Assembly (NCBI RefSeq): GCF_050920415.1
Contig: NZ_CP169309.1
Length of the DNA stretch: 64,000 bases
Reading direction: 5' to 3' (one strand)
Source: Escherichia coli
Lineage (GTDB): Bacteria; Pseudomonadota; Gammaproteobacteria; Enterobacterales; Enterobacteriaceae
The position numbers and the translations under genes are program-made. Positions 12,093 to 56,099 of the stretch are shown here, in pieces (position 1 is the first letter of the stretch; the number at the start of each line of letters is the position of its first letter). The notes beneath the pieces were generated by a model. The model was not told the origin of the DNA. It was given only the letters and a program-made list of their open reading frames with translations, and ran no database searches.

Positions 12093-12258
12093 GCTGAATC
12101 CCACTAGTCTTGTCCGGTATATGACGATTATCAGAGGTTAAGGTGATGATTTCTCGGCGGTGTATCATATTCCAGAGAAGAGAGAACATTGCGGTAACAC
12201 GCTTTTACCGCTACCTTAACCACACTCCATCGGTCACCTGAGGCGGAGCTTCGCCCCT

Positions 12259-40383: not shown

Positions 40384-40417
40384 GCCAGATGCGGCGTAAA
40401 CGCCTTATTCAGCCTAC
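40384..40417 (+). repeat. REP element flanking the IS
   Basis: gccagatgcggcgtaaacgccttattcagcctac. Confidence 0.5.
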
Positions 40418-40512
40418 AAAATCGTGCGAACTCAATACATTGCTCGATCCGCGTAGATACTGTTATGGCCTGCAAGTTTTTTTCTACCCTGGTTTCCCAG
40501 ATTGCAGGCATG

Positions 40513-41745
<1,233 letters not shown>

Positions 41746-41815
41746 CGTAGCGCATCAGGCAGTTTTGCGTTTGTCATCAATATCAGCCCGAGGGTAAATC
41801 CATCGGGCTATTTTT

Positions 41816-42781: not shown

Positions 42782-45376
42782 ATGCATCACTCTGGTTCTG
42801 TTTCTCTTTGTCGTTCCGCAATATCTGTTCTGGTGGCTACAGCGTTATATTCTCCCATAGCATTGGCATCAACTGTTGAGTATGGAACGACTGTTGATGG
42901 TGTTGTCCTGGAAAAAGATATCCAGCTGGTTTATGGGACCGCAAATAATACGAAAATCACTCCCAGCGGAGAACAGCATATAAAAGAATGTGGTGTAAGT
43001 AATAATGCTGAAATAAACGGAGGGTATCAGTACATTGAAGCATATGGCTCAGCAGAATACTCAGTATTAAATGATGGTTATCAAATTGTTCAATTGGGTG
43101 GTGCAGCAAACCAAACTACCATCAATAATGGTGTGTTACAGGTTTATGGAGCTGCTAATGAAGCCACTATTAAAGGCGGGCGCTTACTCGTTGAAACCGA
43201 AGGCATTGCCATCTTCGCCGTTATCGAAAAGGGAGGACTACTGGAGGTTAAAGATGGCGGATTGGCATTTGCGGTAGATCAAAAAGCAGGCGGTGCAATC
43301 AAAACAACCACGCGGGTTATGGAGGTATTCGGAACAAATCGTCTCGGTCAGTTTGATATCAAAGATGGGGTTGCTAACAATATGCTGTTGGAAAACGGCG
43401 GAAGTTTGCGGGTTGAAGAGAATGACTTCGCTTATAATACCACTGTGGATAGTGGTGGTTTACTGGAGGTTATGGATGGCGGGACTGCAACTGGCGTTGA
43501 CAAAAAAGCAGGCGGAAAATTAATTGTTTCAACGAATGCGCTGGAAGTGAGTGGTACAAACAGTAAAGGCCAATTTAGCATAAAAGATGGCGTGTCTAAA
43601 AATTATGAACTAGATGACGGTTCCGGGCTAATTGTTATGGAGGGCACTCAGGCAATTGACACTATCCTTGATGAGCATGCAACCATGCAATCGTTGGGAA
43701 GAGATACTGGTACGAGAGTGCAGGCACATGCAGTTTATGATCTTGGTCGGTCAGTGCAGAATGGAAGCATAAAATATTCCTCAAATGCTATATCTGAAAA
43801 TATGGTTATCGATAATGGTCGCGCTAATGTCTGGACTGGCACAATGGTTAACGTAACAGTCAGAGGAAATGAGGGCATTATTGATGCAATGGCGCTGGAA
43901 TTAAATTTTTATACACCGGCTACATTATTAGGTGACGTGGTGGTTTCTGATGGTGCATCTTTAAGAACGCATGGCGCAGTGGATACCAGTAAAGCAGATG
44001 TTTCTATCGAAGAGAGTTTTTGGGCTATTATTGCCGATATCAATAATATAAACCAAAACACCCGTCTCAATTTAGCAAACCTGGTGATGTCAGACGGAAC
44101 TGTCGTTATGATGGCTGAGCCAGTGACTCGTTCATCTGTGACGGCAAGTGCGGAAAATTTCACTACATTGACCACTAATACCCTGTCGGGAAACGGCAAT
44201 TTTTATATGCGCACCGATATGGCCAATCACCAGAGCGATCAGCTTAACGTCACCGATCAGGCAACAGGTAATTTCAAAATCTTCGTTACGGACACCGGTG
44301 CCAGCCCGGCAGCAGGAGATAGCCTTACACTGGTAACAACGGGCGGCGGTGATGCTGCATTTACCTTGGGCAATGCCGGAGGCGTTGTTGATATCGGTAC
44401 GTATGAATATATCTTGCAAGATAATGGCAACCATAGCTGGAGTCTGGCAGAGAATCGCACGCAAATAACTCCTTCAACCACTGATGTGTTGAATATGGCG
44501 GCAGCACAACCGCTGGTATTTGATGCAGAACTGGATACCGTACGTGAGCGTCTTGGTAGCGTAAAAGGCGTTAATTACGATACGGCGATGTGGAGTTCGG
44601 CAATTAACACCCGCAACAACGTAACCACTGATGCGGGAGCTGGCTTTGAGCAAACATTGACGGGGCTGACGCTCGGTATCGATAGCCGTTTCTCCCGTGA
44701 AGAAAGCAGCACAATTCGTGGCTTATTCTTTGGTTACTCTCATTCTGATATTGGTTTTGATCGCGGCGGTAAAGGCAATGTCGATAGCTATACCCTGGGG
44801 GCTTATGCCGGTTGGGAGCATCAGAACGGTGCCTATGTTGATGGGGTGGTGAAAGTTGACCGTTTTTCCAACACCATCCATGGCAAGATGAGTAATGGGG
44901 CAACAGCGTTTGGCGATTACAATAGTAACGGCGCGGGTGCTCATGTCGAGAGCGGGTTCCGTTGGGGGGAGGGGTTGTGGAATGTAAGGCCTTATCTGTC
45001 CTTTACCGGCTTTACCACTGATGGTCAGGACTATACGTTATCAAATGGTATGCGAGCGGATGTGGGAAATACCCGCATATTACGCGCTGAAGCGGGAACG
45101 GCGGTAAGCTATCACATGGACCTGCAAAACGGTACGACGCTGGAACCCTGGCTGAAAGCCGCCGTGCGTCAGGAATACGCCGATTCTAACCAGGTGAATG
45201 TTAATGACGACGGCAAATTTAATAATGACGTGGCTGGAACCCGTGGCGTTTATCAGGCTGGGATAAGGTCATCGTTTACCCCGACGTTAAGCGGTCATTT
45301 GTCAGTCAGCTATGGCAATGGCGCGGGGGTAGAATCACCGTGGAATACCCAGGCGGGTGTGGTCTGGACGTTCTGA
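42782..45376 (+). CDS. yejO: Autotransporter YejO, apparently intact (864 aa)
   Basis: 864-aa ORF with signal peptide, repetitive passenger region and C-terminal beta-barrel ending ...VVWTF. Confidence 0.8.
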   Translation: MHHSGSVSLCRSAISVLVATALYSPIALASTVEYGTTVDGVVLEKDIQLVYGTANNTKITPSGEQHIKECGVSNNAEINGGYQYIEAYGSAEYSVLNDGYQIVQLGGAANQTTINNGVLQVYGAANEATIKGGRLLVETEGIAIFAVIEKGGLLEVKDGGLAFAVDQKAGGAIKTTTRVMEVFGTNRLGQFDIKDGVANNMLLENGGSLRVEENDFAYNTTVDSGGLLEVMDGGTATGVDKKAGGKLIVSTNALEVSGTNSKGQFSIKDGVSKNYELDDGSGLIVMEGTQAIDTILDEHATMQSLGRDTGTRVQAHAVYDLGRSVQNGSIKYSSNAISENMVIDNGRANVWTGTMVNVTVRGNEGIIDAMALELNFYTPATLLGDVVVSDGASLRTHGAVDTSKADVSIEESFWAIIADINNINQNTRLNLANLVMSDGTVVMMAEPVTRSSVTASAENFTTLTTNTLSGNGNFYMRTDMANHQSDQLNVTDQATGNFKIFVTDTGASPAAGDSLTLVTTGGGDAAFTLGNAGGVVDIGTYEYILQDNGNHSWSLAENRTQITPSTTDVLNMAAAQPLVFDAELDTVRERLGSVKGVNYDTAMWSSAINTRNNVTTDAGAGFEQTLTGLTLGIDSRFSREESSTIRGLFFGYSHSDIGFDRGGKGNVDSYTLGAYAGWEHQNGAYVDGVVKVDRFSNTIHGKMSNGATAFGDYNSNGAGAHVESGFRWGEGLWNVRPYLSFTGFTTDGQDYTLSNGMRADVGNTRILRAEAGTAVSYHMDLQNGTTLEPWLKAAVRQEYADSNQVNVNDDGKFNNDVAGTRGVYQAGIRSSFTPTLSGHLSVSYGNGAGVESPWNTQAGVVWTF

Positions 45377-45470: not shown

Positions 45471-45493
45471 TGGGATTTTTGGTCGCACGAGAG
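45471..45493. repeat. Distal att direct repeat of the proL island
   Basis: tgggatttttggtcgcacgagag resembles tgggcgatttggtcggcacgagag at the tRNA 3' end (56281..56304). Confidence 0.55.
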
Positions 45494-45660
45494 TAGTTTA
45501 ATTGAGTGTATAACTAAATGATTTTAAATAATATTCTTTATTCAACTTTTAAATCGTATAACCAAACGTATAACTAAAATAATTTGCTGAAAAAGTGTAC
45601 AATTTCAGCAATAATTGCCCTAGCGACTATCATCCTGCTCCCCGGATTTTTTCCGGTTAA

Positions 45661-45897
45661 ATGTTAATCAGGCTGCTGGGCTTTGCCTGTTCGGTAGGTG
45701 TAATGATTATCGTAATACTTTTCCCCCAATGGGGTAAAAGCATCAACCGTAACGGAAGTCGTTATGGTTGCCTTGATGATCTGCGTGGTCATTATGACCA
45801 TTCAGCCAATGACCTTAATCAGAGCTTTTCGCTAAAAATGACGTTGGCCACTCGTCCGAAAAGCACAAAATCCCATCGATTTTTAATTAACGGTTAA
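45661..45897 (+). CDS. Hypothetical small membrane protein (78 aa)
   Basis: ORF with hydrophobic N-terminal segment (LLGFACSVGVMIIVILF); no convincing RBS. Confidence 0.25.
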   Translation: MLIRLLGFACSVGVMIIVILFPQWGKSINRNGSRYGCLDDLRGHYDHSANDLNQSFSLKMTLATRPKSTKSHRFLING

Positions 45898-46035
45898 ACC
45901 GTCTTTTTGTCACGTCGTGTCACTGGTTGTCACTCTCCGTCACGATCTCCGATAGCCTGGCTGCAAATTAAACTACGAAAATTTCGTAGTTCTGACTTCT
46001 TTCAGATAGTCGGTTGCCTGGTTACACGAAAAAAA

Positions 46036-46407
46036 TTACTTCCTGCGTTTATCCCGCTTTGTATGTCCGTGCTGAATGCCCCGCAGTGGATCTTCTTTTT
46101 TCAGGTCGATCCCCATGTCCGTTAGTGTTTTTGTGGCGGCGGTTCTTATGGCACAAATCAGGTCTCTTTCCGGTTCCCGGGTTATGGTTGCCTTCCGGAT
46201 ACATGCCGTTCGTCGTTCCGTTACATACTGACGCGCTTCATCACTTGCCGCCTGTTTCAGTAACTCACCCCAGCGATTAGCCGCCCGTCGCCATAAACCT
46301 TTCGCTTCCAGTTCTTCCGCTTTGTCATCATGCACCATAAGCATAATCCCATTGATACCTGTTAAATCTGAATGGTTGGTTTCCGTTCTTTTGATAATTT
46401 CCCTCAT
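46036..46407 (-). CDS. Hypothetical protein, possibly PerC-family transcriptional activator-like
   Basis: 123-aa ORF with LEAKGLWRRAANRWGELL motif reminiscent of PerC-type activators; start may be an internal Met. Confidence 0.4.
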   Translation of the reverse strand: MREIIKRTETNHSDLTGINGIMLMVHDDKAEELEAKGLWRRAANRWGELLKQAASDEARQYVTERRTACIRKATITREPERDLICAIRTAATKTLTDMGIDLKKEDPLRGIQHGHTKRDKRRK

Positions 46408-46450
46408 AGCTTATTGTATGACAGTACTGTCCCACAATAAGGAATCACAC

Positions 46451-46750
46451 ATGAGAATGACCAGGCACAAAAAACAGATTCTTGAACTTTACAAACCTGA
46501 GTATCGCGATTGGGTGCGGGTGGAGGCCGGAGATCCGCCTTTTGATGTTCGTGGTGTGACAGTGCTGCTCTATGGTTCCGAATATCAGCGATATCACATA
46601 GAGGCAACCCGACGAACGTTAAACGCTATGGTAAATGATGGGATCCTGTACCGCGTGAAAGTGCGCGAACCCCGCTTTGATGTGCGTATCGGTAGCGATG
46701 GCGCTCACTGTACGGTAATCCGGTACGGGCTGGGTAAATCAGATGATTAA
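46451..46750 (+). CDS. Hypothetical protein (99 aa)
   Basis: Start chosen at ATG 46451 preceded by AAGGA RBS (ORF track extends upstream to 46322); no recognisable domain. Confidence 0.45.
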   Translation: MRMTRHKKQILELYKPEYRDWVRVEAGDPPFDVRGVTVLLYGSEYQRYHIEATRRTLNAMVNDGILYRVKVREPRFDVRIGSDGAHCTVIRYGLGKSDD

Positions 46751-46873
46751 ATCACCAGAATGTAAATTTACATTCTGCCAGCCACCAGCTACAGAACGCA
46801 AATTTGCACTTTGCTGAAATATTAACGGGTTAGGCCAGAGTGCAAATTTGCATTATGCTTTAACTTCAGCAAG

Positions 46874-47155
46874 TTACCGCCGTAACCGCTCCGGCTTCTT
46901 CCACTGGTACGTTATTTTGGCTTTTTCCCTGTACGTCTGTATCCGGCGACGGTAGGCCAGCATTTCAAGAACGCGGATCCGTATGTCGCGCATATCCGCA
47001 TCATTAAGCTGGATACCATCACGGTGCATCACCTCAGCAACCACACGAACATAATTTTCTGCGGTCACGCTGTCCGGCTGCGTGGCCTGTTCGTCAGCCT
47101 GCTGGTTGATTCCGGCGACGCGGCGGATTAATCGCAGTAGTTCGGTTTCTGTCAT
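46874..47155 (-). CDS. Hypothetical protein (93 aa)
   Basis: ORF just downstream of the capsid-gene terminator; no recognisable domain. Confidence 0.4.
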   Translation of the reverse strand: MTETELLRLIRRVAGINQQADEQATQPDSVTAENYVRVVAEVMHRDGIQLNDADMRDIRIRVLEMLAYRRRIQTYREKAKITYQWKKPERLRR

Positions 47156-47315
47156 TGTGCCCCCATCGCGCTGGTTAAGAAAACAAGCTCAGATTTTTTG
47201 TAAAGAATCTGTCACGCTAAAAGATGTCGAACAAAAAACAACCTTCTCCATCATCTTTTTTGCATCGATTACATTAAAAACAACAGGTTACATACATGAT
47301 GATGATGACGATAAA

Positions 47316-47412
47316 ATCACAAAAATGCGCTTTTTTCCGCGCCCGCCCGCCCCGTGTTCATACCCACCCCACCAGGAGGACCCGCAAAAAAGGCGGCTGG
47401 TGCCGCCTTGTT
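47316..47412 (-). repeat. Repeated non-coding element, copy A: terminator hairpin plus GC box
   Basis: Shares a ~38-bp near-identical core (aaaaatgcgc(t/c)tttttccgcgcccgcccgccccgtg) and similar downstream architecture with copy B. Confidence 0.6.
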
Positions 47413-47413
47413 G

Positions 47414-49303
47414 TCATAGTGAATCGGTACCGCCTGATTTGACCATACCGCGATAATCCAGAGCGGCCACACCAGCATCAATACGGACTTTCCAGGCCAC
47501 ACCGTCAACGATGAAACCTTCCTGCTGTTCAAGGTAAGGCTCGTCATTGCCATCAAGATAAGCCACCTCGATTGTGTCCGTTCCCTGTGCGGAAAGCATG
47601 TACCATTGTTTTTCGCTGATATCATCAAGGCGGGGATCGACGATAATATCCAGTAGTTTGTGATACGGGTTAAAGATCCCGCTGTTTTTATCTGCCCCGA
47701 AAGGTGCGGTTGAGTTAATCATCTGCAACGCGCGATCTTCCAGTGCTGCCGGAACTAAAAGGAATTTAGGCGCAATATTCAGCACTTCGCCATTTTTGTC
47801 CTTCTGTGTGCGCATCAGGTGACGTGCTGCACTAAGTCCCGGTGTTGTCAGTCCTGCTTCAATCAGGTTGCTGTGTTTTTTGTCAAACAGCGCTATTCCA
47901 TCAGAAAGTTTTACGTTGCCTGTAAGCACCAGATTAACCAGATTTCCCACCGTTCTTGATGCTGCACGGCCCATAGCCATTGGCACCGTTGATAACTGAT
48001 CAAGGTCATCATTGATTATCGCCTGGCGGGTAATGCTGAAAATATTCCCGTAAGTAGCCAGCGCGATGGGTTCACCGCGATCGCTGGTGGTGATGTATTT
48101 ATATTCTGCCCCTTCCGGCACTTTGTTTAACGTAGAGAAACCATTCAGACCAACGCGGCGGGCTTCACGAAAGTTTGAAAGGGAACCTTTTTTCGTCCAC
48201 TGGCGGAATGTTTCGCCGCTGTGCTCCCAGCCTGCAAGCACTGATTTTTCAGCACCACCAGCAAGGATATCGGTAAAATCGCTGCTGCTGTGGTTGAATG
48301 CCGCGTTTACTATCTGCGAGCGTGTTCCGTAGCTGCCCGTGCTTATACCACGATGGGTTAATGATGCCTGTGCCATATCGAAAAGGCTCATCATGGCGTA
48401 AGGATTACCGCGTTCGGCCCGTTCGTGACCAAGACGCGCATTAAGCCCCTGGCGCATTGCATCGCCGGTTATGTTGCCGTTATCCGTGTACGCGTAGTAA
48501 AGATTTGCGGGGGTGGTTTTATTTGTTGGCGTTGATTCTTTACCCATAGCGAGTAAAAGGCGTTCGCGTGCATTCTCAACGCTACATTCTGAATCAGCAA
48601 GACAACTTATAGCCAGGTCGTTATATCTTCCGTTGAACGTGCCAAACAATTCACGGATGCCGTTAAGTCGTTCCTGTTCGCCACTGCCAGTTTTCTGGCT
48701 GATCATGCTTTTAATTTTTTCCGGCATATTTGAAAAATCTCCGATTCGTTTTGATTCAATTCGGGCCATTGCTGTAATCGCGGGTATAACCTCATCTGCG
48801 AAGCCGTTAGCCTTACACTCATTGCCATCCATCCAGGTTTCCGCCTCCATCATGGCGGTGATTTCCTGTTTGCTCCTGCCCGTTCTTCCGGCGTAGGTTT
48901 CAGCCATCGTGTCGCCCAGCTTGTCCATCAGGTCAGCAAAGCGGCGAACGTCGCCCGACACTCCGGCAGTAACACCACGGGGGGCATGTATCATCATCAT
49001 TGCGTTTTCAGGCATAACGATGTGATCGCCACACATGGCAATAAACGAGGCCATAGAAGCCGCCATGCCTTCAATGTGTACAATTTTCTTTGCCGGATGA
49101 TTTTTCAGGGCGTTATAGATAGCCAGCCCTTCAAAGATGTCGCCACCAGGTGAATGGATGCGAAGATGGATTTCAGACGCATTACCACACGCGTTGATCT
49201 CGTCAGTAAGTGCCGATGCTTTTACACCGTACCCGCCGATCTCGTCATAAATGCGCACATAGACAACATCTGCCATAGCCTTAATGGAAAACCATGTTTT
49301 CAT
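47414..49303 (-). CDS. Prohead protease (ClpP/S14-like) fused to a capsid-like C-terminal domain
   Basis: 629-aa ORF: N-terminal ~180 aa has ClpP-like motifs (GMAASMAS, MMIHAP); C-terminal ~350 aa reads as an HK97-fold major capsid protein, assigned by impression only. Confidence 0.75.
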   Translation of the reverse strand: MKTWFSIKAMADVVYVRIYDEIGGYGVKASALTDEINACGNASEIHLRIHSPGGDIFEGLAIYNALKNHPAKKIVHIEGMAASMASFIAMCGDHIVMPENAMMMIHAPRGVTAGVSGDVRRFADLMDKLGDTMAETYAGRTGRSKQEITAMMEAETWMDGNECKANGFADEVIPAITAMARIESKRIGDFSNMPEKIKSMISQKTGSGEQERLNGIRELFGTFNGRYNDLAISCLADSECSVENARERLLLAMGKESTPTNKTTPANLYYAYTDNGNITGDAMRQGLNARLGHERAERGNPYAMMSLFDMAQASLTHRGISTGSYGTRSQIVNAAFNHSSSDFTDILAGGAEKSVLAGWEHSGETFRQWTKKGSLSNFREARRVGLNGFSTLNKVPEGAEYKYITTSDRGEPIALATYGNIFSITRQAIINDDLDQLSTVPMAMGRAASRTVGNLVNLVLTGNVKLSDGIALFDKKHSNLIEAGLTTPGLSAARHLMRTQKDKNGEVLNIAPKFLLVPAALEDRALQMINSTAPFGADKNSGIFNPYHKLLDIIVDPRLDDISEKQWYMLSAQGTDTIEVAYLDGNDEPYLEQQEGFIVDGVAWKVRIDAGVAALDYRGMVKSGGTDSL

Positions 49304-49494
49304 AGCCAGGCTCCTAACGTTGCCCTGTACCAGTATTCAACCGCGCTGCGTGTGATTTGTCCTTTCGTGGGTACCGGCATACCCGGGTGATTGTCTTTGA
49401 TGAACTGCTGATAGCGTTCGATCTTCTCCATAGTTCCGGCGTCTATGTGTACCGTGGCACTTTTATCCGGCTTTCTGGTGTTGTTCTCTGGCAT
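49300..49494 (-). CDS. Hypothetical small protein coupled to the protease-capsid gene
   Basis: ORF 49300..49527; internal ATG at 49494 has a strong GGAGG RBS; stop overlaps capsid ATG (ATGA). Confidence 0.45.
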   Translation of the reverse strand: MPENNTRKPDKSATVHIDAGTMEKIERYQQFIKDNHPGMPVPTKGQITRSAVEYWYRATLGAWL

Positions 49495-49854
49495 AAATCC
49501 GCCTCCGTTTTGATTAACGGGCATCATTATTGATCGATAAAAGTAATAGATAAATCATTTTCTACCTGAAAATTAGATTATATTTTTTCTGATTATTCTC
49601 AGAGAGGCAAAGCCATTGACGCATTTTTGCTATTGAAGCAATATTAAGACTCGTCATCCTGGCGATAAAAACTCCTTTGTCGTGTAAAAGCGCCTCCGGT
49701 AACAGCAATCGAGGGCGCTTTTTTTTGCGCCTGTTTTTTTGTAAATGTTTTCGGGAACGCTCCAGTGATGAACAAAAAACAACCTGATTCGACACTAAAA
49801 ATTTTTATTCCTCAATATATCAATAACTTATAGTGGTGGTGATGGTGCCATAAA

Positions 49855-49952
49855 AATCAAAAAATGCGCCTTTTTCCGCGCCCGCCCGCCCCGTGGACAG
49901 GCCCACCAAGCCAGGAGTACCTACAAAAAAGCCGGATTGCTCCGGCTGTGTG
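49855..49952 (-). repeat. Repeated non-coding element, copy B
   Basis: See copy A; hairpin gccggattgctccggc plus GC box. Confidence 0.6.
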
Positions 49953-49965
49953 CTCACTTCTTCGG

Positions 49966-50217
49966 TTATTCTCCAGCGCTTTTAACGTTGATGGTTGTAA
50001 CCTGTTCCGCTTCGGCAATCTCCCATTCTGTCAGCGTGGCAAAGTTTGCCGCCGCTGTGGTCATGAATGCGCTTATCAGGTCGGGATGTGCTTTCGCGTA
50101 TCCTTCCCCCGTGTTGCGGTCGATGATTTTTATCGCCACTCTCAGCCAGTGCTCTGTAAGGTCAATGGCGCGGTTATGCTGCTTCTTCTGATTATTAAGT
50201 TTTCCTGATGTGCGCAT
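49966..50217 (-). CDS. Hypothetical protein (83 aa)
   Basis: ORF between the iteron array and repeat copy B; G-rich RBS-like sequence upstream. Confidence 0.4.
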   Translation of the reverse strand: MRTSGKLNNQKKQHNRAIDLTEHWLRVAIKIIDRNTGEGYAKAHPDLISAFMTTAAANFATLTEWEIAEAEQVTTINVKSAGE

Positions 50218-50249
50218 TTTTATTTTTACCCCCTCGTTTAAAAAGTTTT

Positions 50250-50500
50250 GAGTTGTGCCTCCCCTTGTCTACCTTATCTACCTTACTGGCCACCATGCCA
50301 GTAATGGCGCGGCTTTCAGTGGGGTAGAGTGCTTTTATCCACTATCTACCCCGTATCTACCTCCCTGTCTGATTCAGGTAAAATCAGGTAGAGAGGGTAG
50401 ATAGTAGGTAGACAGTAAAAAAAGGCTGTCTACCCAAGTTAATGTACTGAATTAAATGTATTTTTCTTTACTCAGGTAGACAGGGTAGACAGCCATTGCA
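50250..50500. repeat. Iteron array, putative replication origin
   Basis: At least 11 copies of GGTAGA/TCTACC in both orientations within ~250 bp, just 3' of the replication gene. Confidence 0.55.
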
Positions 50501-50505
50501 ACAAA

Positions 50506-52254
50506 TTATAAAAACGCGTCGCAATCGTCTGTTGTTATTGCGTTAGTCTGCGTTACTCCTTTAACTTTCCGCGTAATATATTCATGTCCGTAAACTTTCG
50601 CGGCTGGCTTCATAGCCTTGCCAAAGTCATTTACGTTTAGCGGTTTGCTCCTGCCTGCGTACGCCATAAACGCCAGATAGACGCGGTAAAGGCTGTTTCT
50701 GGTCGTGTACTTCACTGAATCGCCACCGCCGCCCATCATCAGGCCGCGTGCTTCCTCCAGAAAATTCAGGAACTGGCAAAACTCAATAACCGGATCCGTC
50801 TGTTGCTTTATTGCCAGTGCTTCATCACCGTCACGCTGTTCAATGAGTAAAGCCCGTGCCTTTTCAGGGTCGGCAAAGTTCGCCAGCAAGCGGCGGATAA
50901 TGACAGGGATTTCAGCCGCGATCTTTTCCGGTAGCTCCCTGTCTTTTTCTGCCTCGCTTACGATGTTATCGAACCGGAATATCACCCGACGACGTGCCAC
51001 ACCTCCGGCCCGTTCGGTGAATATCATCGGATTGTTATTGGTTGCCAGCACCACCGCCCTGATTACCGCCGTAAAACGCTTTTCATATTTCGGGTTAATT
51101 TCCACGGGGTCGCCGCCCGTGATTTTCTTGATGCCCGTTCCTTCGCCTGTATATTTCTGCTGGTCTGCCAGGACGATAAGACGACTCCCGACAACCTGCG
51201 CACGCCCACCAGCATCATCAAGCGATGTCATTTCAGCGCTTACCGTGTTTTGTTTCCCTGCCAGAAGGCTGGCTATGTGTGTGAATGTACTTTTACCGCT
51301 CCCGCCGTCTCCGGTGGCCTCAATAAACATCTGCCAGTCGTACCGGTTCGCCATAATCATGTACAGCGCGGCACATATACGCATCATCTTGCTCGGGTCT
51401 TTTCCGGCTGCGTGCTCAAGCCATTTATGAAAGTTTGGCGCGTTATCGCGGATGTTCTCCCCGGGTGCTGGTGGCGTGTACTCAATGCCGTTGTGCGTGG
51501 TGATCCAGTTCTCCGGCGTGTGCGGGGAAAATTCCCCCGTTTTCAGGTCAAGCGCACCATTGGCGAACGGCAGCAAATCGCCGGACGGCTCGCCCATTGG
51601 TTCGGCAATAACTTTTAACGCTTCCACGGCGTTATTGATTACGCGCTTGCTGAAAGTGGCCCTGTGCTCTGAATAGATAGCCACCATTTCGCGGCTCAGC
51701 TCCATTGTGCTGACCGGACACCATACCCCGCCGCGCCATACGTGAACGATTTCACTTTCAGGATGCACACAAACGCCATCAAAGCGCTCGGCAAGCAGCT
51801 GCGCGCGCTCACTGTCTGCCATTTGTGCCAGTTGCGTATTTTTCTGCTCCGGCATGGTAAGCCCTGCGGCAATATTTTCACGCTCAGCATTCAGATAGCG
51901 CCGCCAGTTTTCACACTTCTGGACGTGCATTCCTTCGGGGTAAAAATTTGCGTCCTGAATATCTGCCGCCGCCAGCTTCTGACCAATCTTTTTGGTCTCC
52001 ACCAAATCCAGTTCTCCGGCCTGGTACAGCCTTACGCGCTTTTTCCCATCCGGAACAATTTTCAGTGCATCAAGTTCGGCAAGCTGATTTGGCCCAAGCC
52101 ACACAGGCGGCACATTATCGCCGGATGCGGGGCCATCCTGCTCCTGCCATTGTTTCGCGTGCGACCAGGCATCACTACCCGCGAAAATAATTACCTCTGT
52201 GTCTTTGTGTTTTATTCCGCGTGGCTGTTTTTTTACGTTCGGTGCCAGTTTCAT
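50506..52254 (-). CDS. Replication protein: NTPase/helicase-like with Walker A motif (primase-helicase-like)
   Basis: 582-aa ORF with Walker A GDGGSGKST and a putative Walker B (LIVLAD); SF3/D5/P4-alpha-type assignment is by impression. Confidence 0.75.
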   Translation of the reverse strand: MKLAPNVKKQPRGIKHKDTEVIIFAGSDAWSHAKQWQEQDGPASGDNVPPVWLGPNQLAELDALKIVPDGKKRVRLYQAGELDLVETKKIGQKLAAADIQDANFYPEGMHVQKCENWRRYLNAERENIAAGLTMPEQKNTQLAQMADSERAQLLAERFDGVCVHPESEIVHVWRGGVWCPVSTMELSREMVAIYSEHRATFSKRVINNAVEALKVIAEPMGEPSGDLLPFANGALDLKTGEFSPHTPENWITTHNGIEYTPPAPGENIRDNAPNFHKWLEHAAGKDPSKMMRICAALYMIMANRYDWQMFIEATGDGGSGKSTFTHIASLLAGKQNTVSAEMTSLDDAGGRAQVVGSRLIVLADQQKYTGEGTGIKKITGGDPVEINPKYEKRFTAVIRAVVLATNNNPMIFTERAGGVARRRVIFRFDNIVSEAEKDRELPEKIAAEIPVIIRRLLANFADPEKARALLIEQRDGDEALAIKQQTDPVIEFCQFLNFLEEARGLMMGGGGDSVKYTTRNSLYRVYLAFMAYAGRSKPLNVNDFGKAMKPAAKVYGHEYITRKVKGVTQTNAITTDDCDAFL

Positions 52255-52550
52255 TTTTTACCCCTGAATACGTTAAGCATCTTTTTTATTTCCTGAATAT
52301 TGGCGCGTGCTTTCTCCCTGCTGGTTGGTTTACTGCGGGGCGCTGCCTGTACCAGAGAAAAATCACGCCGAAACTGATAAACAGGCATCACGCAATCATA
52401 TTCGTAGCCTTCACGACGGTAGGTGATGCGCCGTTCTGCCACGCCTTTAATCGTTACCATGCCGCCATATTTATCGCGGTAAATATCGCCGCGCGTAAAT
52501 TTAGGGTGAGTGTTGCCACTAGCAGTTAAGCCAGAAATTTTCTTTTTCAT
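52251..52550 (-). CDS. Hypothetical protein (99 aa), coupled to the replication gene
   Basis: Stop overlaps replication-gene start; basic protein. Confidence 0.45.
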   Translation of the reverse strand: MKKKISGLTASGNTHPKFTRGDIYRDKYGGMVTIKGVAERRITYRREGYEYDCVMPVYQFRRDFSLVQAAPRSKPTSREKARANIQEIKKMLNVFRGKK

Positions 52551-52566
52551 GGTTTTTATTCCGCGT

Positions 52567-52782
52567 TTATTTTTTATCGTGAATTTCGATCGCTTTATTT
52601 AATTCGGTGATTACCGTATCGAGTAATGAAATAAACGCACCAGCAAGATTAGATTCACGTTCACCTTCCGGCGCATCACTTAAACCATCAAGCCAGATAA
52701 GCAATATTTGCCGCAAGCATTCACTGTTAGTCAGTGCGTTTTCTGCATGGCTCATTAATTTAAAATAACGGTCATCATGCAT
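52567..52782 (-). CDS. Hypothetical protein (~71 aa)
   Basis: ORF 52567..52827; internal ATG at 52782 has AAGGGG RBS and sits 2 nt after the upstream gene's stop. Confidence 0.4.
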   Translation of the reverse strand: MHDDRYFKLMSHAENALTNSECLRQILLIWLDGLSDAPEGERESNLAGAFISLLDTVITELNKAIEIHDKK

Positions 52783-53011
52783 GGTGCGCCCCTTGAATAT
52801 CTGCGGTAAGAATTTTGCCTGCCTCATTCAGCGCCATATCAGCACTAAGTTGCATAACCGCCAGCGAATGAGGAACGAAAGCCCCTGCATATTCTGTTTC
52901 ACTGGTGGCGTGCTTATGCGCCATGTCAGCAATAACAGAAATATCAATAAGCGCATCCATCAGCGTTTTGATGGCTTCGGCGGCTGCGTCCGGACGGGGG
53001 TTATTGCACAT
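52775..53011 (-). CDS. Hypothetical protein (78 aa), first gene of the replication operon
   Basis: Strong GGAGG RBS 6-7 nt upstream of ATG; faces the divergent operator region. Confidence 0.45.
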   Translation of the reverse strand: MCNNPRPDAAAEAIKTLMDALIDISVIADMAHKHATSETEYAGAFVPHSLAVMQLSADMALNEAGKILTADIQGAHHA

Positions 53012-53289
53012 GGCGCACCTCCTGACGAATACGGGCGGCGAATACCATCACGCAGCCAGCCGGGGATTGCTGGCGGGCTTCCTGTTCGCTGGTGGCCTCG
53101 ATGGTAATCACGCGCGGTTGTGCCGTGCTCAGGGCGATAAAACGCCAGATGTATTTATTCAGGTTGTGCGAATCCCGCCCTTGCGGGTGTGTGGTATGAT
53201 TTCTCATAGCTGCCTCGATACTCTTTCTATCGTTGGTGGTTAGACGCCCTGCATGTGTGCCACCACTGCGGGGCGTTGCGTTTTTTGAT

Positions 53290-53347
53290 GCACACGTGTT
53301 AAGGTGTACACCTACAAAGCAAAAACATAACGCCATAGGTGTACACA
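53290..53347. promoter_or_regulatory. Operator cluster in the divergent control region
   Basis: Palindromes ACACGTGT (53293), GGTGTACACC (53303..53312) and AGGTGTACAC (53338..53346, overlapping the RBS of the plus-strand gene). Confidence 0.5.
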
Positions 53348-53541
53348 TGTCAACAGTTATTAAGCGCGATAAAAAACAAAAAGGCACAGGAAAGACCCCA
53401 CCGTTCCATATGCGTATAGTTCCTGAATTGAAGGAGCAGTTTGATAACGAAGCCAGTAACGATGGAGTAAGTCTTGCCAACTGGCTTAAAGAGTTGGGGC
53501 GCGCCGAACTAAAGCGACGCGGCATTGAACCTAAAGGCTGA
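53347..53541 (+). CDS. Small DNA-binding regulator, putative ribbon-helix-helix (64 aa)
   Basis: ATG with AGGTG RBS; HMRIVPELKEQF strand-like then helical DGVSLANWLKELGRAEL suggests RHH (assigned by impression); divergent from the replication operon. Confidence 0.45.
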   Translation: MSTVIKRDKKQKGTGKTPPFHMRIVPELKEQFDNEASNDGVSLANWLKELGRAELKRRGIEPKG

Positions 53542-53544
53542 TGT

Positions 53545-53664
53545 ATGACCGATAACAAACTTTCTCTAACAGAGAATAAACCATCAGGCTTCTTACCAAG
53601 AAAAATCCTTGATGAGATCAAACGCCGCCAGCGTAAAAAATCCAAAGGAGCAGACACGGAATAG
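53545..53664 (+). CDS. Hypothetical basic peptide (39 aa)
   Basis: Short ORF 3 nt after the upstream stop; below the ORF-track length cutoff. Confidence 0.2.
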   Translation: MTDNKLSLTENKPSGFLPRKILDEIKRRQRKKSKGADTE

Positions 53665-53667
53665 CTT

Positions 53668-53832
53668 ATGCAACAAATACCATACTGGCTTGGCTCTCTG
53701 TTTGTATTTGCATTTCTCATGAAATATTGCATTAGCAATGAACTTGTCGGTAATGAAAGTGCATGCGCGAGCGCTGAAAAAAATATTCCACTTCTCGTAT
53801 ATGAAAACGAAAGCCCTGTGAACCGCAATTGA
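53668..53832 (+). CDS. Hypothetical small membrane peptide (54 aa)
   Basis: ATG 3 nt after the upstream stop; hydrophobic N-terminus (YWLGSLFVFAFLM) then polar tail. Confidence 0.25.
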   Translation: MQQIPYWLGSLFVFAFLMKYCISNELVGNESACASAEKNIPLLVYENESPVNRN

Positions 53833-54108
53833 GCGAAATTTAATGAATTCACTCTTTGCCCACCAGCCGCAAATGTGGCATTGTTGGCGATGCTCATGCG
53901 TTGGGGATAACGTGTAGCTTGTGTCGAAGGGCCATCGTGACAGGTGGCCTTTTCTTTACCTGTTATCTGGCAATTGTGGCGCTTCGTCACACGGTTGATA
54001 TAATTCCCCTGCACTGATCCATTTTTTTCGCAGCAGGTTAATTGTTCGCAAGGGCGCTCCGGCAACGGGGCGCTTTTTGTTATGTTCATCACGTTACGCC
54101 TCACACCA

Positions 54109-54315
54109 TTACGCAGCCGTTCCGCGCGCTTCTTCCTCGCGCTCTTTCAGCCAGGCCAGCACTTCATCTTCATACCAGCCAACACGACGCAGACCGATTT
54201 TGAAGCCTTTCGGAAATTTTCCGGCGTTGATCATGTCCTGTAGCGAACTGTCTGCCTTGATGCGCAGAATATTTTTTACTTCCTGACGGGTAAGAATTTT
54301 TCTGATTGTTTCCAC
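54109..54315 (-). CDS. alpA: AlpA-family transcriptional regulator/excisionase-like protein (GTG start)
   Basis: 68-aa ORF with MerR-like HTH (LTRQEVKNILRIKADSSLQDMINAGKFPKGFKIG...); typical neighbour of P4-type integrases. Confidence 0.8.
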   Translation of the reverse strand: METIRKILTRQEVKNILRIKADSSLQDMINAGKFPKGFKIGLRRVGWYEDEVLAWLKEREEEARGTAA

Positions 54316-54384
54316 TATGTTTTACCTCGTTAATCCGGCGTATTCCGGTGATAAATACGGTAAAACAGGGCAGGGCGGGAAAAA

Positions 54385-54420
54385 CAGTACCCACCGTTTT
54401 AAAACGGTACCCACTGTTTT
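54385..54420. promoter_or_regulatory. Putative operator upstream of alpA
   Basis: acaGTACCCACcgtttt aaaacgGTACCCACtgtttt: motif repeated 20 bp apart around a central palindrome. Confidence 0.4.
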
Positions 54421-54485
54421 TTATCTTATTGATTACGCTTTTCTTTCTGCAAAAAAATAGCGACCGCAAGGGGCCGCTATTGTGA

Positions 54486-54728
54486 TTACCGTTTCCACTT
54501 CTTAGGTCGCCCACCGCATTTAAGGCTGGTGGGCCTCAGCACCTTGTCGATGCTTTCAGCCAGATTTTTCGATGCGCCACGCGAGCGCAAAAAACTGACT
54601 ACCTCGTGTTTTGTGGGGGCAGTTGATTTGTCTTCCGGATCGTACGTTGACCAGAATTCACGATTTGCCATTAAGGCCAACTGAAGGCCTTCACCATAGG
54701 CAGGGGATACCTTTTCATTGAAAAACAC
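54486..54728 (-). CDS. Hypothetical protein (80 aa) between integrase and alpA
   Basis: ORF followed by a hairpin/T-run near 54455..54480. Confidence 0.3.
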   Translation of the reverse strand: MFFNEKVSPAYGEGLQLALMANREFWSTYDPEDKSTAPTKHEVVSFLRSRGASKNLAESIDKVLRPTSLKCGGRPKKWKR

Positions 54729-54829
54729 TCGGATAACTCCTTGAATTTCAAGAGTCGGGTCTCTCTGTATATGGTGATTATACGATGGTTTAGCATGGTT
54801 TGCATCGCTTTTACTGGTTTTTTGTACAG

Positions 54830-56071
54830 TTATACGGCACGGATACCCCTTTTACCACTGGCTATGGTCACTCCGGTTGCTGCGGCCTCTACAAATTCCC
54901 CCCACCAGCGCATAAGCACCACGCGCTTTTCCAGGTAGTTACTTCGGTTATATGCTCGCCTTACCTCGTTCGTGTCCACGTGTGCGAGTGCGGCCTCGAT
55001 TACGTCCGGCTCGAATCCTTCCTCGTTCGCTGCTGTGCTGAATATGGCGCGTAATCCATGAGACACCAGCACGCCAGCGAATCCCATTCGCCGCAATGCT
55101 GCGTTGGCGGTCTGGCTGTTCATAGGCTGCCGTGGGTCTTTCAGGCTAGGGAAAACGTGCTCGCGGTGGTGGCTGATTGGCTTCATGGCCTCCAGTACCG
55201 CCATAGCCTGACTACAAAGCGGGATAACGTGATCACGCCGCATCTTCATGCGTCCGGCGGGGATCGTCCATTGTTGCGCGTCCATGTCGATTTCTTCCCA
55301 GCGTGCTGACGATGCTTCAACCGGACGGGTTACAGTCAGTAGCTGCCATTCAATCAGTAATCTGGTCTGCCGTTCTGTTGCTGATACGGATAAAGCCTGC
55401 ATAAGCTCCGGCAACTGTTCGGGGCGGATTGTTGGCATATGTTTTTTTACAGGGGAGGGGAACGCCTTACGCACATTCATAGCCGGATTGGCATCAATCA
55501 GCCCACTGTTGGCGGCGTAATCCATTACCTCATTAACGCGCTGTAAAACCCGCTTGAGTGTTTCCAGGTTGCCGCGCTCCTTGATGGGTGTAAGCACCTC
55601 AACGAACCTTCGGGCAGTGAGGGTATCTATTGGCGTGTTGCCGATGAACGGGAATACATATTTATCCAGCGAACGCCAGATGTCTTTAATCGTGTTGGGG
55701 GCCAGATTCTGGCTGATTTTCACCTGGTACCATGCCGCCGCCACATTTTCGAACGTGTTCCCTTGTCTTCGGGCCTCTGCCTCTCGTTTTTTCTTCTCAT
55801 GGTCCTGCGGGTCAGTTCCGGCACTGATTAACGTCCTGTACTCGCTACGGCGTTTTCTGGCATCAGCCAGGGAAACATCTTCAAGAGATCCAAAACTCAG
55901 CAATATTCTTTTTTTGTCCGATGGTCGGTAGTAGGAAAATCGCCAGAGTTTTGATCCGGACGGTTTTACCAGGAGAAAAAGCCCACCGCCGTCCTGTAGG
56001 GTGTACTCCTTTTGCGCTGGTCTGGCTGCTTTGATCTGCACTGTGGTTAATGGGGGTGTTTTTCTCGCCAT
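54830..56071 (-). CDS. int: Tyrosine site-specific integrase (P4-type)
   Basis: ORF 54830..56089; start placed at MARKTPPLTT; N-terminal arm-binding-like domain and catalytic HGLR...LAH...Y. Confidence 0.9.
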   Translation of the reverse strand: MARKTPPLTTVQIKAARPAQKEYTLQDGGGLFLLVKPSGSKLWRFSYYRPSDKKRILLSFGSLEDVSLADARKRRSEYRTLISAGTDPQDHEKKKREAEARRQGNTFENVAAAWYQVKISQNLAPNTIKDIWRSLDKYVFPFIGNTPIDTLTARRFVEVLTPIKERGNLETLKRVLQRVNEVMDYAANSGLIDANPAMNVRKAFPSPVKKHMPTIRPEQLPELMQALSVSATERQTRLLIEWQLLTVTRPVEASSARWEEIDMDAQQWTIPAGRMKMRRDHVIPLCSQAMAVLEAMKPISHHREHVFPSLKDPRQPMNSQTANAALRRMGFAGVLVSHGLRAIFSTAANEEGFEPDVIEAALAHVDTNEVRRAYNRSNYLEKRVVLMRWWGEFVEAAATGVTIASGKRGIRAV

Positions 56072-56099
56072 ATGTCTATGATTCCACACGAAAAAACAG

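Follow-up and report, generated by a model that had tools for sequence, protein, structure and literature searches.

A solitary protease-scaffold-coat fusion gene between two predicted helper-type cos sites in a phage-inducible chromosomal island of Escherichia coli

Gram-negative phage-inducible chromosomal islands (PICIs) have been described by Fillol-Salom et al. 2018 (PMC6092414) and by Tommasini, Mageeney and Williams 2023 (PMC10111431). Among the late genes of these islands a lone capsid gene is the most frequent, a capsid gene is found in 21 of the 29 reference elements, and PICIs bearing a CLP_protease domain have been catalogued (PMC10111431). For the function of ClpP-capsid fusions in PICIs our literature searches returned no description beyond this cataloguing. 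Since most PICIs carry a capsid gene and the sole reported knock-out had no phenotype, the retention of coat genes by satellites is acknowledged as a loose end. Here we describe a PICI of 10.8 kb (approximately 45494-56304) in a stretch of 64,000 nucleotides from Escherichia coli (GCF_050920415.1, contig NZ_CP169309.1), hereafter the window, the remainder of which is core E. coli chromosome. The island carries one structural gene (47414-49303, minus strand) that encodes protease, scaffold and coat in a single protein, is under strong selection and lies between putative cos sites which would name Stx-type phages as helpers. It thus offers a clean one-gene case for the question what the capsid genes of PICIs are for.

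The element is a Gram-negative PICI of the EcCICFT073/EcCIED1a kind. With EcCICFT073, and with EcCIED1a and SdCI1012 at tRNA-Pro, it shares the gene order from int and alpA through the primase gene and the replication origin to the late zone, the four-zone organisation and a size of about 10 kb. For EcCIED1a and SdCI1012 the same tRNA-Pro att core (CTCTCGTG) and the same arm repeats are listed as were found here. As in other Gram-negative PICIs, the iterons of the origin are located immediately 3' of the primase gene (PMC6092414). Multiple cos sites, a PerC regulator and a last gene with 83% identity (blastp) are further features in common with EcCICFT073. However, EcCICFT073 has a lambda-type coat (E-like) and decoration protein (D-like), a lambda-type cosN and the TerS mimic RppA, whereas our island combines a Gifsy-2-type fusion with the matching cos and has no Rpp or TerS homologue in the window. 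Rpp is not universal among PICIs.

The protein itself is a member of a curated family, which is the normal coat of Gifsy-2-like phages, and the island is of a known PICI kind. As lone capsid genes are common besides, we do not consider it a new kind of element. New here are the two helper-matched cos sites, the old and selected satellite lineages and the shorter middle segment in solitary copies. In the searchable literature we found no account of this coat type paired with the matching cos of two helper subgroups, nor of the long separate history of the satellite copies, the selection on them or a systematically shortened middle segment.

The fusion gene and its predicted flanking cos sites

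Fusions of the Gifsy-2 type are known from mEp460, mEp213, mEp043, cdtI, VT1-Sakai, CP-1639 and Stx2a phages (NF045540). There the gene comes immediately after the portal gene and before the cement/decoration gene within a complete TerS-TerL-W-portal module, so that the head module reads TerS-TerL-W-portal-fusion-cement-tail. The island protein shows the same domain order and conserved catalytic residues, with an identity of 49-52% over the full length. In contrast to the phage genes it stands alone between two cos sites. An earlier note, made from the sequence alone, had described it as a single structural gene without portal or terminase genes, and our searches agree. PHROGs assigned no portal, terminase, tail or lysis gene to the other open reading frames (ORFs) of the island. 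In the whole window tblastn detected no helper-type TerS, TerL, W, portal, cement, Z, U or V, no RppA and no lambda-type coat or decoration protein. A separate complete morphogenesis module was therefore present neither in the island nor elsewhere in the window.

The ORF starts with ATG, encodes 629 amino acids and ends with TGA at 47416-47414. ORF, profile, model and alignment evidence divide its product into a ClpP-type prohead protease (aa 1-180, 49303-48764), a linker and helical scaffold-like part (aa 181-276, 48763-48476) and an HK97-fold coat (aa 277-629, 48475-47417). Pfam recognised CLP_protease at aa 41-173 (7e-33) and Phage_capsid_4 at aa 330-623 (8e-55). The whole protein scored 889.8 bits against the NCBIfam model NF045540 'ClpP-like prohead protease/major capsid protein fusion protein', for which the curated cutoff is 475 bits, and matched PHROG 133 with E = 5.6e-280. 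An AlphaFold2 model built on an alignment of 69 diverse homologues reached a mean pLDDT (predicted local distance difference test) of 90.5, and only two short loops, aa 203-206 and aa 261-275, were of low confidence. The maturation cleavage is predicted to fall within the second of these, a disordered loop. Foldseek against the PDB gave ClpP among the matches listed for the N-terminal third, and the HK97 fold is present in the C-terminal half. The catalytic residues Ser83 (GMAASMAS) and His106 (MMIHAP) and the SPGG oxyanion motif are kept in 64-68 of the 69 family representatives, the acidic residue at position 155 in 63. Both domains that the earlier note had read from the sequence, a ClpP/S14-like one at the N-terminus and an HK97-fold capsid region at the C-terminus, are thus borne out by profiles, conserved residues and structure prediction.

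The note had also described the element as being without a scaffold. This is probably wrong, since a putative scaffold is found inside the fusion. In the model, helices at aa 185-256 lie between protease and coat, and this part probably corresponds to the internal scaffold of the tripartite Gifsy-2 gene. Effantin et al. (2010, Virology 402:355) are said to have described a tripartite Gifsy-2 capsid gene with a scaffold-like middle domain. For the NF045540/Gifsy-2 type a scaffold-like domain of about 200 residues is named, compared with 96 aa for the central segment of our protein. We conclude that the gene is an intact, selectively maintained 'tripartite' capsid gene with a ClpP-type protease, a probable helical scaffold and an HK97 coat in one chain.

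Directly upstream, a small ORF on the same strand (49300-49527, phrog_4934) overlaps the start of the fusion gene by 4 nt (ATGA). It encodes 75 aa from its first ATG, or 64 aa from the RefSeq start at 49494, and is kept in all Enterobacterales satellites examined with the invariant pattern VH.DA..T...Y...P..P.P...QI.R..V..W. The predicted structure consists of an extended N-terminus followed by two helices (pLDDT 79), and a fold search with this model gave no significant match. An assignment as a ribbon-helix-helix (RHH) protein was unsupported.

The module of small ORF and fusion gene is bracketed by a direct repeat of 98 nt at 47311-47408 and 49850-49947. Its 19-nt core ACGGGGCGGGCGGGCGCGG occurs exactly twice, compared with 0.03 expected occurrences. 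The cos regions were found through this repeat and not through a match to the cosN of lambda. Exact or near copies of lambda cosN (GGGCGGCGACCT) were present in the window at chance level only, and the cosN of the island is a different variant. The downstream cos region (47180-47408, minus strand) comprises a terminator hairpin (47408-47386), a cosQ-like GGGTCCTCCTGG (47383-47372), a cosN-like ACG/GGGCGGGCGGGC (47355-47341) and a cosB-like stretch down to about 47180. The other copy, located upstream (49720-49947, minus strand), has the same orientation; its terminator hairpin lies at 49947-49930 and its cosN-like core at 49894-49876. The downstream copy, taken with about 130 adjoining bases, aligns over about 200 nt with the sequence that directly precedes TerS in Stx2a phages and VT1-Sakai (approximately 86% identity), whereas the best phage matches of the upstream copy were 1720a-02 and CP-1639 (90.5% over 168 nt). 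The phages with such cos regions are the phages whose coat is a ClpP-coat fusion. Moreover, the repeat aligns with the lambda-type cos of a CFT073 prophage and with the cos-like site of EcCICFT073 in the cosQ-like GGGTCCTCC..GG, the cosN-like ACG/GGGCGG...CGCGG and the cosB-like flank. The cos sites of EcCICFT073 have been validated experimentally (PMC6092414), and by homology to them we infer that both repeats of our island function as cos. One mEp460-derived genome record begins at most 5 bases from the predicted nick. A bracket of two direct cos copies around the fusion was found in every related island examined.

Each cos copy is directly preceded by a G+C-rich hairpin with a T-run (47408-47386 and 49947-49926), with compensatory differences between the two copies. 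In mEp460 and mEp213 a rho-independent terminator is annotated at the same position after the fusion gene. Two sister islands (L007 and L009) have a third, inverted cos-like copy downstream of the fusion at about 12312 on the minus strand.

Relatives of the island that are embedded in prophages also point to the helpers. Tommasini and colleagues described such elements as helper-embedded PICIs (PMC10111431). In three E. coli records (L014-L016) satellites with a fusion 91% identical to ours lie inside the late gene terL of prophages which have their own fusion coat of 674-680 aa. Satellite and helper coat within the same E. coli locus are 54.5% identical. In a Kluyvera relative (L060) a satellite with a solitary fusion is followed by a 5'-truncated helper fusion gene, suggesting that it inserted in the ClpP part of the helper's own gene. 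The embedded satellites span 8995-16580 in L014 and 7671-13843 in L060. Unlike these elements, the island in the window occupies a chromosomal tRNA-Pro site between yejO and yejM and not a prophage. Based on the matching cos and the embedded relatives, lambdoid phages with Gifsy-2-type heads are the likely helpers. Among these, the cos sites likely point to Stx and related lambdoid phages of Shiga toxin-producing E. coli (STEC), which are common in cattle-associated E. coli. Helper-type coat genes were present in 2070 of 5426 complete E. coli genomes. The two helper-type cos sites, the embedded 91%-identical copies and the full PICI backbone together strongly support the proposal of the earlier note that the element depends on a helper.

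A group of sister islands has a fusion 62-64% identical to that of the window and shares with it the DUF4222 gene and small ORFs. In these islands (L003 at 12171-12656; L004-L006 and L008) a 161-aa protein with the Pfam domain DUF1441 is encoded directly after the downstream cos. A direct comparison showed 65% identity to the TerS of mEp460. DUF1441 is therefore a TerS family, and the sister islands pair a coat gene with a TerS gene. A PDB sequence search with the DUF1441 protein and with the 93-aa and 75-aa ORFs of our island gave nothing significant, which indicates no relationship to Rpp.

Ancestry, selection and the shortened middle segment

The fusion allele of the window was found in 143 of the 5426 complete E. 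coli genomes, mostly in STEC and cattle-associated strains, and is full length in 142 of these 143 carriers. Comparison with the 91%-identical embedded copy gave a ratio of nonsynonymous to synonymous substitution rates (dN/dS) of 0.093 at a dS of 0.53. For the same pair the values were 0.14 for the protease, 0.09 for the middle and 0.08 for the coat, while two helper-phage fusion copies gave 0.12. All three domains are thus under purifying selection about as strong as in helper phages. The suggestion of the earlier note that the protein might be repurposed finds no support in this result.

The satellite copies form a clade which is sister to the enterobacterial phage copies. Its two subclades are 63% identical to each other, and the subclade of the window shows 53-55% identity to any phage copy. 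This separate clade and its distance to the phages indicate an old, maintained satellite gene and not a recent capture. The arrangement of small ORF, fusion and cos is kept across Escherichia, Citrobacter, Trabulsiella, Yersinia and Kluyvera.

About 30 residues of the phage proteins, namely a linker rich in Pro, Ala and Gln and the beginning of the first scaffold helix, are missing from the island fusion. The missing residues map to the low-confidence loop at aa 203-206 of the model. Gifsy-2-type phages have 125-138 aa in the middle segment compared with the 96 aa of the island (aa 181-276), which is the second shortest of the 69 representatives (median 127), whereas neither its protease nor its coat part is unusual in length. 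Look-ups of the genomic context placed the representatives with short segments in satellite-like loci and those with long segments in phage modules.

We compared 80 loci from species-representative genomes together with the earlier loci. A copy with a portal gene directly upstream was classed as portal-linked (phage), any other as solitary (satellite), and clustering at 80% identity yielded 58 clusters, 14 solitary and 44 portal-linked. The median middle segment was 99 aa in solitary and 127 aa in portal-linked clusters (Mann-Whitney p = 1.8e-5). Among relatives with at least 45% identity the separation was complete, with 96-105 aa in solitary and 110-138 aa in portal-linked copies (U = 0, p = 3e-5). 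Protease-segment length did not differ between the classes (p = 0.28), and coat-segment length differed marginally (medians 354 aa solitary and 351 aa portal-linked, p = 0.04). Three 'solitary' loci in two clusters were outliers with 136-141 aa. As cement and TerL genes are found near all of them and a portal gene near two, these are phages misclassified by the adjacency rule. All 66 portal-linked copies examined were phage-type loci. In a neighbour-joining tree calculated without the middle segment, solitary copies occurred in at least three places and were each shorter than their nearest phage neighbours. Such a short segment between protease and scaffold may bias assembly to satellite-specific, possibly smaller, shells.

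Some further loci of the survey deserve mention. Short portal-linked segments that overlap the satellite range were found in Alphaproteobacteria and metagenome-assembled genomes of Rickettsiales (L095-L105), which form a distinct deep clade. In L020 (7417-7712) a cement/decoration homologue follows a fusion that has no portal gene and whose middle segment (87 aa) is the third shortest, so that some satellites may carry coat and decoration genes together. A metagenomic contig (L022, 467-10536) encodes an integrase, a 70-aa ORF, a solitary fusion, a 767-aa protein with a TMP_2 domain, an IncFII RepA, a ParA-like protein and ProQ. By its gene content this would be a plasmid-like element carrying an all-in-one capsid gene.

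Assembly on helper parts and alternative explanations

Satellites that encode coat-like proteins have been described before. SaPIbov5, which is also a cos-type satellite, encodes with Ccm a homologue of the helper coat that takes the pentamer positions and alters both size and shape of the capsid (Hawkins et al. 2021, PMC8569155). It is Gram-positive and unrelated in sequence, and Ccm has no fused protease. For a satellite coat that assembles together with helper parts, Ccm offers the best mechanistic precedent. Capsid-forming PICIs (cf-PICIs) take nothing but tails from the helper and have their own genes for portal, TerS, TerL, HNH and head-tail connectors (Alqurainy et al. 2023, bioRxiv 10.1101/2022.09.08.507074). 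We rejected membership in this group because none of these genes is present in the island. With P4 the island has in common the P4-type integrase, an AlpA-like regulator, an alpha-type primase, the size of about 11 kb and packaging at cos by the terminase of a helper, which for our island is predicted. P4 itself lacks a coat gene, and its external scaffold Sid alters the size of P2 capsids. As no ORF of the island matched the sid, psu or delta PHROGs, a P4-like element was rejected as well.

We lean towards the view that the fusion gene is a working satellite coat module whose product assembles on parts taken from a helper. Induction of the island would come from a lambdoid helper whose head module is of the Gifsy-2 type, Int and AlpA would excise it, and the primase would replicate it from the iteron origin. 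The helper terminase would then recognise and cut the two cos sites. The coat polyprotein would assemble on the helper portal into procapsids, either alone or mixed with helper coat, the ClpP domain would remove the protease-scaffold part, and the shell would be filled with island DNA, with portal, terminase, decoration protein and tails provided by the helper. Induction, the co-assembling proteins, the capsid size and the need of the gene for transfer are inferred parts of this scheme. Capsids formed or resized by the satellite coat would mean that capsid piracy has a further, new route. They would also be of consequence for the mobilisation of Stx-converting phages and for interference with them, and the correlation with a short tether would point to a simple size-determining element in HK97-type assembly.

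A wider and more tentative proposal concerns all solitary all-in-one capsid satellites, which we found in Escherichia, Citrobacter, Yersinia, Kluyvera, Trabulsiella, Marinobacter, Halioglobus and further genome or metagenome contigs. These could be old, widespread gammaproteobacterial lineages in which the trimmed protease-scaffold tether leads to shells of their own, probably of smaller size, on a portal stolen from the helper, with the length of the internal scaffold segment as the size determinant. If so, such satellites would steal terminase, decoration and tails, a strategy midway between classical PICIs, which steal everything, and cf-PICIs with their stolen tails only.

Several points weigh against a working coat module. 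In EcCICFT073 deletion of the capsid or decoration gene left interference unchanged, the capsid gene was not needed for transfer and the island was found in phage-sized capsids (PMC6092414; restated in PMC10111431). Among relatives that have a capsid gene this element, with lambda-type coat and decoration genes, is the only one studied by experiment. Unlike its sister islands, our island has no TerS homologue that could give it a packaging preference over the helper. A sigma-70 scan of the capsid module found fewer consensus sites than in shuffles and identified no promoter. The association of short segments with satellites is correlative, the neighbour-joining tree has no support values and the statistics ignore kinship. 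Moreover, some portal-linked alphaproteobacterial copies are also short (103-110 aa).

The tolerated deletion and the phage-sized capsids of EcCICFT073 (PMC6092414) would fit a coat gene that is not needed for transducing particles. In this case concatemers of about four units (4 x 10.8 = 43 kb) would be packaged in helper-built T=7 heads, and four island lengths do fit the helper genome of 46.3 kb. We consider this main alternative possible but rather doubtful. With similar reserve we regard the proposal that the main role of the satellite coat is interference, its subunits poisoning or competing in the assembly of helper heads, or that it is a dispensable backup copy. In CFT073 the PICI coat is likewise diverged from the coat of the resident prophage (46% identity), which is the same pattern in an element where dispensability was shown. 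However, strong purifying selection has acted over a long divergence on all three domains, including the catalytic residues of the protease, and this argues for a selected activity which requires all three parts of the protein at once. For a poison subunit an active protease would be superfluous, and a backup copy that can be dispensed with would be expected to decay, whereas 142 of 143 copies are intact. The EcCICFT073 test was carried out with lambda and phi80, which are maybe not the natural partners of its coat gene. Should the gene be dispensable after all, the island would be an ordinary PICI with a known cargo type.

Two further explanations would remove the gene from virion assembly altogether. 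An encapsulin-like compartment, or a decoy or sensor in an anti-phage defence that exploits capsid recognition, seems very improbable to us. Any protein with an HK97 fold should give encapsulin matches, in all islands examined the gene lies between cos sites in the late zone, and protease and scaffold are under selection as in phages. Family searches of the island ORFs showed no cargo-loading or defence genes adjoining the fusion, and the coupling with a TerS homologue in sister islands is a packaging context. That the gene is a decaying remnant, left over from a defective prophage or from a large capture of late genes and devoid of current function, is hardly credible. PICI late zones are indeed dynamic and capture clusters of helper late genes that are later lost (PMC10111431). 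Nevertheless, a remnant is already contradicted by the selection and conservation data, namely the dN/dS of about 0.09, the frame maintained in nearly all carriers, the monophyletic satellite lineage distant from any phage copy and the order of small ORF, fusion and cos kept across five genera. A defective prophage was also rejected as the identity of the island. A coat module working together with helper parts remains the reading that we favour.

Borders and backbone of the island

The island is inserted at the 3' end of tRNA-Pro(GGG), between yejO and yejM, and its length is within the range of 10-20 kb of PICIs with a direct-repeat att site. The tRNA gene (56288-56366, minus strand) forms the right border with the att core at its 3' end (56288-56304). 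A k-mer comparison of the island ends revealed the left border, an att remnant consisting of a displaced 3' tRNA-Pro fragment at 45478-45493 (TTTGGTCG-CACGAGAG, one G missing). The att core of 16-17 nt is thus present at both ends, and because the displaced copy is short of one G, the tRNA would be damaged after precise excision with this copy. A pattern of this kind has been reported for PICIs as the 'damaged attR tRNA fragment'. Repeats of the GTATAACTAAA type (repeat family D2), which are probable arm-type sites of the integrase, are located at the left end (45508-45590) and recur beside int at 56100-56160.

The core genes are all on the minus strand, in the unidirectional series integrase, AlpA, variable zone, DUF4222, primase, origin, small ORFs, fusion, 93-aa gene and PerC. 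The P4-type tyrosine integrase is encoded at 54830-56089 (413 aa with the RefSeq start, ending at 56071) and the AlpA-type excisionase/activator at 54109-54315 (phrog_66; Pfam Phage_AlpA in homologous islands). The variable 'Bro/immunity' zone (53001-53541) contains an Icd-like remnant (approximately 53001-53252, minus strand) and an Arc/RHH-like ORF (53347-53541, plus strand). It is followed on the minus strand (52251-53011) by small conserved ORFs at 52775-53011 and 52567-52827 and by the DUF4222 protein gene (52251-52550). The primase/helicase of the D5_N/DUF5906 type (50506-52254, minus strand, 582 aa) matched phrog_864 with E = 7.5e-170. Directly 3' of its gene lies the replication origin (50263-50492) with more than 10 GGTAGA(C/T)AG iterons in two inverted sets.

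A conserved replication-zone ORF of 83 aa (49966-50217, minus strand, phrog_1231) is 84% identical to an 81-aa ORF of the sister islands. On the other side of the capsid module, the 93-aa conserved PICI late-zone gene (46874-47155, minus strand, phrog_1561) is the counterpart of the last gene of EcCICFT073 mentioned above. An accessory gene at 46451-46750 on the plus strand encodes a hypothetical protein of 99 aa with no family match. The PerC-family transcriptional regulator (46036-46338, minus strand) was assigned from the RefSeq annotation of a 99.8%-identical island and from PHROG transcriptional-activator families. None of ten small island ORFs reached the curated family cutoff in NCBIfam. 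At E <= 1 the only Rfam match of the island was tRNA-Pro, with no C4/isrK immunity RNA and no known RNA at the repeats.

Two observations were made outside the island. The autotransporter gene yejO (42782-45376) is an intact ORF of 864 aa in the window and is annotated as frameshifted in the closest complete genome. Between ccmH and narP the window contains an IS110-family element (40400-41800), with a transposase frame split into 40888-41541 and 40562-40810 on the minus strand. The reference strain OkiPb01679, otherwise 99.8% identical, does not have this element.

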